Positions 43,653 to 53,983 of a stretch of 64,000 nucleotides of DNA are shown one piece after another. A model generated the notes under the pieces. That model was not told the origin of the DNA. It saw only the letters and a program-made list of their open reading frames with translations, and did not search any database. The position numbers and the translations under genes were made by a program. This DNA is from Ophelia neglecta (taxonomy: Eukaryota): assembly GCA_965285935.1 (NCBI GenBank), contig OZ260663.1, forward strand, positions 35,092,001 to 35,156,000. Reading direction: 5' to 3'. The first letter of the stretch is position 1. Each line of letters begins with the position of its first letter.

Positions 43653-46312
43653 CACTAAAAACAGTATGTGACTTTCTTTTCTGCAGAAATTGTATTGAAG
43701 ACAAACTATGAATCTAAATGGTCTTACTTTCCTCAAATTAAAATTTTAATAGGCTTAAATTCGGACAAAGGTAAAGTTAATTGTCATCATATCAATCTTT
43801 AAACTTAACTTGTTTTATGCATAGTTCTGACATACTCAAAAAAGGGCCATGAGCAGGGGCGGATAGGCAAGGTATGTTTCATTTCATTTGAGAACTCGCC
43901 ATTATTGTAGAATTATGGGTGTTTTAAACCCACCAGCCGTTTGAACCGCAAACATCCAAATCCCAACCCATCTATGTCATAGCTGGTGCCCAGATAAGCT
44001 AACTTCCCCGATAGTTCACGTGGATCGGGATAGGGGGTTGGCCTCCGAGGCTAGGCAGTGTTAATAGGCAAGTTGTATCTCCCCCTGGAATCTCAATAGA
44101 GATGGATTCGCGTGTCCCTTATAGGATGGAGCGCGAATTTCAGGGAACCGTGGATCAATAATACAACCCTACCCTTATTCCAAAAGAAGCAATGGATCGT
44201 GAAACCCCCCCTCTGACAGCGTACATACTGTAGAAGGTGCTTCCAATGATACAGAAAACTGCCGATTTAGACCTTCTTACCAGGAAGTTTATCATTTAAA
44301 TTAACACAGCTGAGACAAGATCTGATCGAAAAGACGAGATCCATTTGTAGGAAAGAAGACGTTATCCAGTTGTTGGGGTGTGACACGGTGTGGCCTAGTT
44401 GAACGTCGTCCAATTGTAGTGGTGTGGCATCCTTAGATCTGTTATCTAGTCGTAGGGGAGTGACACGGTGTTTCATAGTAAGCAGTTATCTAGTTGCAGC
44501 GGTGTGACTGGGTTTGTCTTAGTAAGACGTTACCATTTGAAGGGGTGTGACGTGGTTTATCGTAGTGAGACCTTATCCAGTTGTAGGAATGTGACATGGT
44601 TTGTAGGAGTAAGACATTATCCACTAGTAGGGTAATGACATTAGGTGTCGTAGTAAGACGTTATTAAGTTGTAGGAATGTGACATGGTTTTTCGTAGTGA
44701 GACCTTATCCAGATATAGGAATGTGACATGGTTTGTCGTAGTGGGACCTTATCCAGTTATAGGAATGTGACATGGTTTGTCGAAGTGAGACGTTATCCAG
44801 TTGTAGGAATGTGACATGGTTTGTCGTAGTGAGACCTTATCCAGATATAGGAATGTGACATGGTTTGTCGTAGTGGGACCTTATCCAGTTATAGGAATGG
44901 TACATGGTTTGTCGTAGTGAGACCTTATCCAGTTATAGGAATGGGACATGGTTTGTCGTAGTGAGACGTTATCCAGTTGTAAGATTGTGACATGGTTTGT
45001 CGTAGTGAGACCTTATCCAGATATAGGAATGTGACATGGTTTGTCGTAGTGAGACCTTATCCAGATATAGGAATGTGACATGGTTTGTCGTAGTGGGACC
45101 TTATCCAGTTATAGGAATGTGACATAGTTTGTCGTAGTGAGACCTTATCCAGTTATAGGAATGTGACATGGTTTGTCGTAGTGAGACGTTATCCAGTTGT
45201 AGGAATGTGACATGGTTTGTCGTAGTGAGACCTTATCCAGTTATAGGAATGGGACATGGTTTGTCGTAGTGAGACGTTATCCAGTTGTAAGATTGTGACA
45301 TGGTTTGTCGTAGTGAGACCTTATCCAGATATAGGAATGTGACATGGTTTGTCGTAGTGAGACGTTATCCAGTTGTAAGATTGTGACATGGTTTTTCGTA
45401 GTGAGACCTTATCCAGATATAGGAATGTGACATGGTTTGTCGTAGTGAGACCTTATCCAGTTATAGGAATGTGACATGGTTTGTCGTAGTGGGACCTTAT
45501 CCAGTTATAGGAATGGGACATGGTTTGTCGTAGTGAGACCTTATCCAGTTATAGGAATGGGACATGGTTTGTCGTAGTGAGACGTTATCCATTTGAAAGA
45601 TTATGACATGGTTTATCGTAGTGAGACCTTATCCAGTTGTAAAAATGTGACATGGTTTGTAGGAGTAAGACGTAATCCAGTTGTAGGGATGTGACTTGGT
45701 CTGTCGTATTGAACGTTTTCCAGCTGCTGGGGTGTGACATGGTGTTCCGTAGTGAAAGGTTATCCAGTTGTTGGGGTGTGAAATGGTGCGTCTTAGTAAG
45801 ACATCATTCAGTTGTAGGGATGTGACATGGTGTGTCGTAGTTAGACGTTATCAGTTGTAGGGGTGTGACATGGTGTGTCGTAGTTAGACGTTATCAGTTG
45901 TAGGGATGTGACTTGGTACGTCGTAGTAAGACGTATTCCAGCTGTTGGGGTGTGACGTGATGTTCCGTAGTAAGAGGTTATCCAGTTGTTGGGTTTGACA
46001 TAGTGTGTCATAATAAGACGCTATCCAGGGGAAGTGAGATTTTGTCGTAGTCAGGCGTTGTTCATTTGTAAGGGTGTGATGTACTGTGTCATAGTAAGAC
46101 CTTATCCAGTTGTAGCAGTGGTACGTGTTTAAATAAGTATCTTATTCCATTGCTGGATCTTAAAAGGCTTAGGCATCATCTTATTGGACTCTCCGATTTT
46201 AAGCCTATTACAATTTTACTTTGAAGAAGGTAAGCCCATTTGTCTAGAGAACACTAATAGTTTGTCTTCAATACAATTTCTGCAGGAAAGAAAGTAACTT
46301 ACTGTTTTAGAG
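43653..46312. mobile_element. Non-autonomous CACTA/EnSpm-like element with ~115-bp imperfect TIRs, carrying a tandem array
   Basis: 43653-43767 (CACTAAAAACAGTA..CTGCAGAAATTGTATTGAAGACAAACTAT..AATAGGCTTAAATTCGGA) matches the reverse complement of ~46192-46312. TA flanks both ends. Confidence 0.7.
44357..46120. repeat. 44-bp minisatellite, ~40 copies (GTGACATGGTTTGTCGTAGTGAGACCTTATCCAGTTATAGGAAT)
   Basis: Unit starts at 44591, 44679, 44943, 45251 and 45559 differ by multiples of 44. The core is homogeneous and the edges are degenerate. Confidence 0.95.
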
Positions 46313-48949: not shown

Positions 48950-49500
48950 ACTAGGTATGTCAAATGCTGATACCGGATGTTACCTCCAAGGCATAAACTT
49001 TTCGACACCTGTTTCTTTTCCGATAACGTTTCATTCATCACATTATTCCGTCGGTCAATAACAAAAATGCTCGATATCGTTCACCAATACAGACAATTTT
49101 GGCGCCTAAGTTCAACTTAACAACGTTTGAGATGAAGAAGTTTGGCAAACGGAATACTGTTAGAGACCAACGTTTTAACACGGGGCCTGGGCTAATCACT
49201 GTGGCAGGAGATATTTTACATCTTGGAGTCCCACTGGTATCTAATGGCAAAGAGTTGGGAAGCCTCCTAATAGAAAACATAACTAAAGCTCGAACAAAGA
49301 TATATTCCGTCCTCTGGATAGGAGATGCCACCAGACGATTCAATACCATCATATTGTCAAAGTTAGGCTTTCTCTATGGCCTTGACCTGGTGAAAATTCG
49401 CACTCAAGTAATGGAAATATTAGATGTTGAACATCGATGCCATGCTAGGCTAATTCAGAACATGTCAGCCAATTAACCCAGCAGTGTTAGCACCATTAGG
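48950..49500 (+). mobile_element. Degenerate LINE (L2/CR1-group) reverse transcriptase fragment
   Basis: Frameshifted translation GCYLQGINFSTP/FSDNVSFITLFRRSITKMLDIVHQYRQFWR/KFN...HLGVPL...IENITKARTKIYS...LYGLDL...RLIQNM follows the YADD-to-thumb region of non-LTR RTs. Confidence 0.7.
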
Positions 49501-49567: not shown

Positions 49568-49672
49568 TATAAACTGGGTATACCGAGTGGTAACAAAGCG
49601 AGCAGTGACTCCACTGCGGAGATACAAAACGTTGCATGACTATTGAGTGCTGTTGTGTTTCTCAAGCCTCAG
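49568..49672 (+). promoter_or_regulatory. Putative PRP promoter (TATAAA at 49568) and first exon (~49600-49672)
   Basis: TATAAA, an Inr-like GCAGT ~35 nt downstream, a strong donor CAG|GTAAGT at 49672, and AGCCAAT at 49468. Confidence 0.6.
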
Positions 49673-50705: not shown

Positions 50706-53700
50706 ATGGCTTCGACAGGAGAAGATGGGCCGGTCCGTTCGTTCATGGACGATCCAAAGATTAGCTGGCGTTCAGGAAAGCCGGACTTTTCCGGGGTGGA
50801 CCGAGCTTATATGGAGGGACGCACCCGTCATCACAAGCCAGGTAGCTTGGAGAAAACTATTGAAAACGCAGTCAAAACCTTCGAAATGGAGGCATCGCAC
50901 AAGACTGATATAAAGGTAAGACATTTGCTTTTCAGAAATAATTATTATGACATGATCCTCAATTCTACATGTGTTTTCAACGCCACCATGACAAAATCAA
51001 GTTCCATTGCGGATATAAAAGTGCAAATATCACATTAAATTACTAAGCACCACCATTAACTTTCACAAGGAGTAACAGACATTTAAGGTTCTTGTCAGTA
51101 CGTTTCTCTGTTTATGAGCGATGTGTCTTAACGGTTTTTATTTGAAGATTAACTTTGTTTTGGATCATTTTTATATTTCTTTTTTTTTCTTGTTTTTGTT
51201 GTTGTTTTTTTTTGCTTAATAAGCGAAATAATTTCCGTTATTCAAATAATTCAGAAAATGCCCCAATATCTATGGACACTCGTAGATGTGCTTGACAGCT
51301 GCACTTATCAAGTGTCACGCCAAATTGGCATTATAGTTAGACCCAAATTTAGTCGGGAAGCAAGCATTGTTAAATTATTTTTTTGGCCTAAGGGTTGAAA
51401 TCCGTGCTGGCCAAGACCCATCTCAATTGCCCCGTTAATCCTGAGTAATGTCCAAACACGCTTCTTACCTAGAACAAGAGACTTTTCCTTAATGTATTCT
51501 TTTATTAAATTTCTTTTATCCGGATAAGACAATATCGCAGAAGATCATTTGCTGTTTATCTAACCGTTTGAAAATATCTTGTAATAACCTATATGTGTGT
51601 AGATTAAAAGAGAAATAAGATCCAAGTAGGTGTTAAAAAGGTATATTCTCCGAGCTTTCGACTGATACAGCCGTCATCAGGGTACACAAATTTCAAATGA
51701 GGAAATACAAATAATTTACACCTACATGGACCTTATTTCTCTTTTAATCTATTACTACAGAGGTGAGCATAGCGGACGCAACTTATAGGCCTATATGTGT
51801 GTACACTGAGTAAGACATGCAAAAAGCACCCTAAGCTCGGTTATTTCAAGAGATGGCGAATATTCTAAGACAAAATGCATGGTGTGGAATTGATAACGAC
51901 TGCACCGCACAGTTACCCAACACTGGGTCATTCCGTTTCACCAAAGCATTTTTTTGTAATGAAATTGCAGCGCAATGCATCGTCTCAATTTTGGTCACTA
52001 TATGGCATTTAGCTGGCATGATTGAATTTGTTCTGTCGACATTTGTTAAAGCAATTGCTAAAGGCCGATGAACTAAATCATAAGCCGTAGTCTTATTTGA
52101 GTAAGTAGTTACTAAGATCAAAATAATGTCTTGAGCTTATGTTAAATTTTCGAAAGAAAATAGGATATGGCAGTATGCTATAGTCAATCTATACAGTTTT
52201 ATGGCTTATAATCTATTAATATATGATATTCATTAATCATTATAAAGGCCTTGCATTGTGCACGTTAAAACGGCTCCCATGTAGATGTATAATATGAGGC
52301 GACCATGATCTGGCTTCAATACTTTGAGTGTTCTCTTTTTACAGGATTGGGGTTCTGTTGACCCAGAAAGATTCAAGTTACGGTATAACGGAAGTCGTGA
52401 GTACGGAATAGGTGAAATTATACAAAGGGGAACTTACAATTGCTTTCTTGATGAGAGTCCTCTATATGATTCCAAAGAGAAAACTTTTGACAGCTCCATG
52501 GCCCTGTTCAAAGGCTGTTTTTCTGAGGGGTTTGCCTGGGAAGTCCTGGAGATACAATCTGGTAAGAATCCCCACCGACTACTGATATTCGAGGTTTCTT
52601 AACCCGTTCACGGAGTGTAAGTTACTATTGTATCGAATGTGATTTAAATCGTAGAATCTACCAGCCGAGCTGAACGGCAAACCAGAATCACTCTTTGAAA
52701 GGTAATAAGGAACTAATTCCTGCTTCATACCGAGGGGGGGGGGGGGGGTATTTCAGAGAAAAATATTTTGCCTTATCAGAAATACCGAAAAATCTGGCCA
52801 TGAACGTACTTTGAATACACCGTACCTAAGCAGTTTCTTCATAAAAAAAATCTGGTCCCGAGAAATATTCATCCCATCCCCCCCCCCCCCCCTCCGAAAT
52901 ATCAATATTGGTCGTATAATCTCGCAAGAAGTCCACATGCATGTCTTGAAGAGTTGCAAACAGAAAACTCGCGGCTTTTGTGATCCTTACTGTAGTTCGA
53001 CCAGGCAACGAATTACTTCATCGAGAAGCCCCTTTGACGCCCCTTGCCGGAGTCTGTCGGCCCATTGTAAATGCTCTGTGATTTCGGATGTATACAGTCT
53101 GGAAGAAGGTGGTGGGTTAGGAGTGTGGGAGTGTTCCCCCATACCGCATTCAAATGGTCTTAATGTCCCATGTCTCATGAGCAACAACCCCCCCCCCCCA
53201 CCCAACATACACAAACATACACTTATTTTGATTAACCTGCCCATTCAAGGGGCTGTCGACCCAGGCCTAAAGGAAATTAATACAGAAGCCGAAGGATGTC
53301 GGTCGTATTATTTTACTATGCGACTACATTTTTCTCAGGCAACTAAAGCAAGCCTTTAATAAAAGCAATGTTGGGTTATTTTCTTTTCGGCCTTAAAAGC
53401 TCCCTGGCGCTCTTGTTTAGAGTAATATGAAACAGGCACACTAAATCGTACCAGACCTTAGCTGACTTTCGAAGCTTTTAAAACGAGGCCAGTACTTAGG
53501 CCTAGACTCTTTCAACGACTCTTCCAAACATGATCAGCCTGTGTGTATCCTTATGGTTCGAAATCAGGGGGTTGCTATGTTTAAATGATTTTTTATCAAA
53601 ACATTGCTGTTTTGTAAAATGAAATTCTAACTTAAAGGAGACTTTACAAGAGTAACCTTTTAAGTCCTGTTTGGGAAGGACAATCATTTGCGAAAATAAA

Positions 53701-53983
53701 TTGCCGGGACAAGTTCTTGTACAGTTAGCCTCCAATTTCATGTTTGCCGATAACAGTGTCTGTTTATTTCCCAGGGCCACCGGTTGTATCATTCACTTGG
53801 CGACATTGGGGTCGGTTCGGCGGTCCGTACAAAAATCACAAGCCGACCGGAGAAGTGATCGAGATGTTCGGCAGTAGTGTGGCTACTCTCGATGATCAGC
53901 TGAGAATAGTAGAGGTTGAAATGTTCTTCGACCCTTCTCCAGGACTGGCTAAACTCAATCATGTCAAGTGTCCATTTGTCTAA
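50706..53983 (+). CDS. Pathogen-related protein (PRP) homologue, NTF2/SnoaL-like fold, 211 aa; join(50706..50915,52345..52561,53775..53983)
   Basis: 636 nt of open frame across GT-AG introns (phases 0 and 1). Family motifs WRSGKPDF, GSLE..IENAVKTFEMEASHK, GTYN, GFAWEVLEIQSGPPVVSFTWRHWG, PTGEVIEMFG and C-terminal CPF, recognised from the plant/fungal PRP family. AATAAA at the stop and near 54158. Confidence 0.9.
51588..51803 (-). mobile_element. ~190-bp hammerhead-carrying insertion (Penelope-like pseudo-LTR remnant or mini-retrozyme) with target-site duplication
   Basis: Direct repeat CCTATATGTGTGTA at 51588-51601 and 51790-51803. ~36-bp inverted repeats at 51601-51636 and 51715-51750 enclose the ribozyme. 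Confidence 0.7.
51641..51687 (-). ncRNA. Minimal type I hammerhead ribozyme (Penelope/retrozyme type)
   Basis: The minus strand reads GTGTACC-CTGATGA-C-GGCTG-TAT-CAGTC-GAAA-GCTC-GG-AGAA-TATAC. It has the conserved cores, a 5-bp stem II, a palindromic AGCT minimal stem III and a bulged stem I. Confidence 0.75.
52705..52920. mobile_element. Possible decayed MITE with poly-G/poly-C subterminal runs in the last PRP intron
   Basis: A G-run near the left end and a C-run plus AATATCAATATTGGTCG near the right end. The TIR match is weak. Confidence 0.3.

Follow-up and report, generated by a model that had tools for sequence, protein, structure and literature searches.

The closest described systems are Penelope-like elements that bear an endonuclease. 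An inverted 5′-truncated copy together with a tail of 30-40 bp, often at one end only, is described for such elements in PMC8557442, PMC3846280 and PMC8969392; PMC3846280 reports duplications of 8-10 bp alongside this layout, for which it proposes self-priming on an antisense template. According to PMC8557442, a zinc-finger linker between the reverse transcriptase (RT) and the endonuclease (EN) is found in the Neptune and Nematis clades alike. For one Penelope-like element, the purified protein cuts and extends both strands in vitro, with the tail lying between two RT start sites, and the hammerhead ribozyme of the same element cleaves only with the protein (PMC11167929). Minimal type I hammerheads of this kind were located in PMC4209133 by custom descriptors.

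We analysed an insert in a 64,000 nt-long stretch of DNA from Ophelia neglecta, in the following called the window. The insert, a stub of 188 bp (~190 bp between the duplications), is bracketed by two exact copies of a 14-bp direct repeat, CCTATATGTGTGTA, at 51588-51601 and 51790-51803, the last two bases of the left copy also matching the pLTR end. As a control for this duplication we considered 2550 mismatched pairs of flanks, in none of which a 14-bp match was found. The inverted arms, at 51600-51636 and 51715-51751, are 37 nt long with three mismatches and can be extended to 48 nt at 83%; between them lie 78 nt that are unique. The hairpin fold has a z of about -6 on either strand, and none of 200 shuffled sequences folded equally well. 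An earlier note on this DNA had described both the repeat and the arms (there ~36 bp, with three mismatches) and had read them as a retrotransposed insert with its target-site duplication, which our analysis supports.

For the positions within the pLTR we set C3 of the hammerhead to 0; the predicted cut falls between +28 and +29. On this scale, the sense piece of the insert covers -33 to about +78 and the inverted piece +44 to +116. The sense piece (51602..51713, minus strand) runs from 33 nt upstream of C3 to a 3′ end without tail, matches the copy L019 at 94% and is about 1% away from the family majority. It is followed by one filler base (51714) at the head-to-head junction, which is not palindromic, and then by a further piece of this pLTR end in inverted orientation (51715..51787, plus strand), which provides the right arm. 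The Penelope tail of ~40 nt (51749..51787, plus strand) is in the window only on this inverted piece, and two filler bases (51788..51789) separate it from the right copy of the duplication. A perfect 12-bp palindrome (51784-51795), possibly a snap-back at the junction, spans the end of the tail, both filler bases and the first bases of the duplication. Both outer junctions were covered at the depth of the flanks in three contig sets, in which the empty-site joint was absent; these sets come from one single sample, possibly the source of the assembly itself, and are therefore not independent and uninformative on polymorphism.

The host intron is inferred at 50916..52344 (plus strand) from a GT at 50916, an AG at 52343-52344 and in-frame flanking exons; the in-frame exons of the host gene are three (50706-50915, 52345-52563 and 53746-53983). 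The donor is 670 nt and the acceptor 540 nt away from the insertion, whose position antisense in an intron, already claimed in the earlier note, fits these splice signals as far as the letters go. The exons may resemble a "pathogen-related protein-like" gene, the putative PRP of the earlier note, in which the insertion would be in intron 2; Pfam gave no match for the three exons and a homologue search with one of them returned none. Elsewhere in the window, a non-coding first exon may have its end at a strong donor site near 49672, a decayed frame at 49027-49476 resembles a LINE fragment, and the region 45585-46141 is a degenerate tandem repeat.

The minimal type I hammerhead is on the minus strand (51641..51687), antisense to the host intron. 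In reading order there are the 5′ strand of stem I (51687-51681), the core CUGAUGA (51680-51674), an extra C, stem II (51672-51660; GGCUG/CAGUC with the loop UAU), GAAA (51659-51656), the palindromic AGCU and C17 (51652), with the predicted cut between 51652 and 51651, just as the earlier note had placed it. A possible drawing of stem I pairs CC with GG and GUGUA with UAUAC, on either side of a 4-nt bulge. An intact core, stem II, palindromic 15-16 positions, a NUH triplet and stem I are hence all present, and a descriptor of minimal hammerheads matched once in the window (51641..51687) and never in 150 Markov-1 control windows. The Rfam scan that had been proposed as a check did not detect the hammerhead, as it gave no match at gathering and three at E<=10, none of them to a hammerhead family.

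The core of the window copy is the commonest in the family. The structure is supported by a sister family, described below, which keeps stem II, the CC/GG pair and the palindrome with different letters. We excluded as evidence the low divergence of the core (8/432 and 10/566, against 124/3040 non-CpG cells at the other positions) because the copies were found by their similarity to this core. A nearest-neighbour model, outside of which tertiary contacts and help by a protein lie, disfavours the active fold both in the monomer (-5.7 vs -10.2 kcal/mol) and in the dimer (-13.3 vs -26.5 kcal/mol), and gives a pairing probability near 0 for stem I within the whole element. Self-cleavage is a prediction, and at this locus the ribozyme could act only with transcription of the minus strand.

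The insertion could have been retained for the regulation of the host gene, either by intronic dsRNA (editing or small RNAs) or by antisense cleavage. In its favour, the plus-strand pre-mRNA is predicted by folding to form a 37-bp duplex, and the inverted arms may accordingly give dsRNA in the host pre-mRNA. However, the ribozyme is on the strand opposite to the host gene, and the host pre-mRNA is therefore not cuttable by it; moreover, the copy looks young and its divergence is ordinary for the family. We consider such a role very improbable.

We searched the assembly (762 Mb) for related copies. The DNA search gave 77 match rows, and the best 40 of 76 candidates were scored, with identities of 78-98%; a 19-nt core had 34 exact genomic matches, against none for the reversed control. 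The copies L010, L018, L019, L027, L030, L037 and L041 reach at least 370 nt upstream. In the copy L030/L057 the upstream sequence includes a GIY-YIG domain (PF01541, E 0.0027, below the curated Pfam cut-off) and an RT stretch, with stops, which is 49% identical over 200 aa to an element of the sister family. L030 also has a CxxxxCxxC linker upstream of the pLTR and a stop codon ~140 nt upstream of the hammerhead core, which puts the hammerhead in the pLTR just past the ORF. An RT followed by a C-terminal GIY-YIG was found in the longer, decayed copies and is absent from the window copy itself; among the scored (best) candidates no copy is intact or full-length, which would have its ORF between two direct pLTRs (a partial tandem), the longest being decayed and 5′-truncated. 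For the RT of the sister family 665 homologues were found, of which the 120 listed are 770-1360 aa long, most with PF00078 and many with PF01541; Pfam gave nothing on the sister RT stretch and a PDB sequence search with it gave no match. Because the longest relatives run upstream into RT, zinc-finger linker and GIY-YIG, the insert is, on this sequence comparison, the 3′ end, or pLTR, of a Penelope-like element that bears an endonuclease.

Two predictions of the earlier note agree with this result, namely that the hammerhead is of the Penelope-like pLTR type, since longer genomic copies run into the RT/GIY-YIG frame, and that related copies exist in the genome: dozens were found, with distinct duplications and with GIY-YIG/RT attached in the longest ones. 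Its proposal of a self-standing non-coding element did not hold, as the insert is a truncated end of a protein-coding family.

One candidate, L147, was dropped from the family as a chance match with no family sequence downstream. Some copies were multiplied passively in larger host duplications (L012, L013, L014, L017 and L029; C5 93-103 Mb) or in a 7.4-kb host tandem array (L005-L008; C12 19.02-19.05 Mb); we rejected the C12 copies spaced 7.4 kb apart as a Penelope tandem, given that their flanks are shared. Another copy (L058:4546-5995) is interrupted by 1.4 kb of inserted sequence, which with its apparent 8-bp duplication suggests a DNA transposon.

Other Penelope-like families are present in this genome. 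The sister family (L053:6453-9252, L067-L096) is younger, with many copies 93-100% identical in protein; it forms nested clusters (C8 70.44-70.50 Mb, C12 13.13-13.16 Mb and C5 38.43-38.46 Mb), in which the endonuclease region of the family is itself the site of insertion. In its hammerhead, position 3 is U rather than C and faces G8 in the majority of copies and A8 in a few; PMC4209133 describes a U3-A8 variant. Further families have long open frames of 976 aa (C9:59825526, L082), 878 aa (C8:83079858) and 1197 aa (C8:12039305-12051748), the last in a 3.75-kb tandem array.

A non-autonomous retrozyme, that is a short non-coding RNA which is reinserted as a unit after self-cleavage and circularisation, is another possible origin of the insert; the earlier note had named retrozymes, next to Penelope-like pLTRs, as typical bearers of this kind of hammerhead. 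The type I hammerhead with its palindromic stem III region and the fact that most copies of the family are short and non-coding would suit it, and retrozymes are reported to derive from Penelope pLTRs (bioRxiv 10.64898/2026.07.22.740005). However, retrozymes are head-to-tail arrays of 150-450 bp, according to PMC7229834, and no head-to-tail hammerhead units, which define them, were found among the retrieved family loci: only one locus had two same-strand cores, and these lie at a distance of 7.4 kb as part of a tandem duplication of the host. Furthermore, the 5′ ends of the copies vary from beyond -400 to +63, running into the coding sequence, and the insert has a single ribozyme, from which no monomer could therefore be excised. 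With no short tandem arrays among these loci, and with a hairpin junction that is unique to the site, the retrozyme reading is largely refuted and its probability is in our opinion minimal.

The 3′ ends of the family point to the origin of the two pieces. At 59 loci these ends fall mainly into two modes, with 21 loci at +70..+83 and 34 at or past +116, together 55 of the 59, and with the other 4 elsewhere; the proportions are biased by the use of the tail as query in the second search. In most relatives the stretch to +116 is in sense orientation downstream of the ribozyme, and therefore the right arm in the window and the 39 bp adjoining it are an inverted 3′ end. Family copies are 5′-truncated with variable target-site duplications, whose lengths go from 8 to 14 bp. 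Duplications of at least 10 bp were found at 15 of 51 loci, compared with 0.35% of the 2550 mismatched pairs; here, the 51 loci are those left after the removal of 8 sharing flanks, L037 and L038 look duplicated and were both retained, and the copies exceeding the reference length had the wrong 5′ flank compared.

Thirteen independent copies hold the pLTR 3′ end in both orientations. The tail is at exactly one end in all 13, on the inverted piece in 7 and on the sense piece in 6 (in L058 with an internal deletion), and the junction is different in each of them; shared junctions occur only where the flanks are shared as well (L003/L004 and L099/L143). At a two-state T/G subfamily site both pieces agree in 10 of the 11 testable copies (p ~0.004), the exception being L133. 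The sister element in L053 has the same inverted layout, with 2.8 kb and a 12-bp duplication, and four further copies (L016, L023, L026 and L140) have short inverted segments that come from other parts of the pLTR.

These copies also bear on the possibility of a MITE-like foldback element, with the arms as terminal repeats of a hairpin that is mobile as a unit. A strong hairpin plus a duplication is what such an element would leave, and two substitutions near the tailless end are common to both arms and were seen inside no other aligned copy. Nevertheless, the arms are not terminal repeats, as the 39 bp outside the hairpin (51749-51787) are the element's tail; the 13 inverted copies have 13 junctions, with the shared ones explained by shared flanks; and the duplication length is not constant. 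Terminal inverted repeats and an identical structure at many loci, as in MITEs, were not found, and we consider this explanation extremely improbable.

The insert belongs to the family, is composed of two pieces of which only one has the tail, and has a duplication and a junction specific to its site. We are highly confident that it is a 5′-truncated, hammerhead-bearing pLTR end with a second, inverted piece, likely produced by a protein that cuts and copies onto both target strands. A staggered double cut of 14 nt would give the target-site duplication; one DNA end would prime RT at the tailless start site and run 112 nt through the ribozyme, the other would use the tail start site, which lies ~40 nt further downstream, for a run of 73 nt, and host repair would then join the two copies head to head. 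That both target ends are primed, at two start sites, is inferred from the results in PMC11167929 and from the 13/13 pattern. If the mechanism is copying from both ends, the hairpin is a by-product; the window stub is probably a dead end, and the ribozyme would serve the RNA cycle of the parent element, in the processing of the pLTR transcript, probably as a dimer or with the element's protein. As a counterpoint, 3/37 positions differ between the arms, although the sense piece departs by only ~1% from the family majority, and therefore either two different RNA templates or later mutation that was uneven has to be considered.

Alternatively, the Penelope origin would be kept and the inverted piece would derive from fold-back self-priming on an antisense template or from a later rearrangement. 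Self-priming is proposed in PMC3846280, and template jumps or short inverted bits off the 3′ end are present in L016, L023, L026, L140, L128, L129 and L133. On the other hand, the window junction is non-palindromic with the 78 unique nt between the arms, and self-priming alone leaves unexplained the outer ends on two different start sites in 13/13 copies. We consider this alternative rather unlikely, and retain copying onto both target strands.

The ends of the family copies give further, more tentative, indications. Four of 37 family pieces end at the predicted cut (L002, L133, L142 and L144), the 37 being the pieces that hold the word beginning at +29 (38, less L147, removed as chance). In L002 and L133 it is the inverted piece that stops there, at +29 and at +28/+29, respectively, the former as read from the junction (the automatic extension gave +22), whereas L018 and L126 have internal deletions at +29, which are not ends. 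L142 and L144 start exactly at +29, among 8 copies (7 independent) fetched by a pattern downstream of +50; under a uniform null these starts have p ~0.002, or 0.014 with a 3-nt tolerance, a null that is too lenient because of other pile-ups of ends (-33, -17, -13 and +33..+44). In L142 the first GG also belongs to the duplicated target, and therefore microhomology can place an end at +29; L144 may be similar. Most pieces continue across the cut, and three have their end at +19 to +22. The ends at +29 are hints, from genomic sequence, of cleavage of the hammerhead in vivo, with microhomology as an alternative.

A second group of ends falls next to TCATTT (51695..51700, minus strand), an initiator-like motif, directly after whose A several family copies begin. 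The start is at -17 in six sense copies and at -17/-16 in a further two that are independent, just after TCA, the T runs blurring the exact position. The spacing from TCATTT to the ribozyme is the same in the sister family. These ends hint at the pLTR transcript start, with microhomology again as an alternative. The naming of this type of motif is drawn from PMC3846280.

It is possible, although we would not expect it, that the Penelope RNA cycle, with in-vivo cleavage and double priming, has left a fossil record in the family stubs. The outer ends would then be the two RT start sites, one per target end, used by a dimer; the 5′ ends at -17/-16 would be the start of the pLTR transcript, and those at +29 would be copies of the 3′ cleavage product of the ribozyme. 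If true, the latter would be evidence for in-vivo cutting by the minimal hammerhead, with the cut RNA then undergoing reverse transcription and insertion. A literature search, mostly of listings and hence weak evidence of absence, returned no report of genomic ends at a hammerhead cut. Copy ends at a predicted cut are a cheap genomic test, with small numbers in this genome.

Compared with non-LTR retrozymes, as described in PMC7229834 and bioRxiv 10.64898/2026.07.22.740005, the locus has the same type I hammerhead and is likewise short, non-coding and Penelope-related; it differs in having no tandem array, a single minimal ribozyme and a variable truncation of a coding element. The hammerhead itself shares with the minimal type I hammerheads of metazoan Penelope-like elements described in PMC4209133 the extra nucleotide between A9 and G10.1, the G10.1-C11.1 pair, the palindromic 15.2-16.2 and a monomer without helix III, whereas stem II is here 5 bp, compared with 7-8 there, and stem I can here be drawn as 2+5 bp with the 4-nt bulge. 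With Poseidon PAc of Anolis carolinensis, an element of a different clade, the family has in common two classes of 3′ ends, which lie ~40 nt from each other and correspond to two RT start sites, as well as the cutting and extension of both strands, here a proposal (PMC11167929). For PAc the same source reports no RNA reads ending at the cut and a cleavage that is unneeded in vitro, whereas a few of the genomic copies analysed here start at the predicted cut.

The closest match is to EN+ Penelope-like elements of the Neptune/Nematis type, as PMC8557442 and PMC3846280 describe them. The C-terminal GIY-YIG, the cysteine linker and the pLTR hammerhead are the same, as are the 5′ truncation, the inverted 5′ piece, the tail of 30-40 nt at one end and the duplications of 8-14 bp; the CxxxxCxxC linker of L030 agrees with that of the Neptune clade but is shared with Nematis, and the family may belong to either. 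The window copy differs in being a 188-bp stub without coding sequence, from a family that appears decayed in the assembly. The layout of the insert is therefore one already published for Penelope-like elements and the insertion itself is ordinary transposon debris, of a kind easily mistaken for retrozymes or MITEs.
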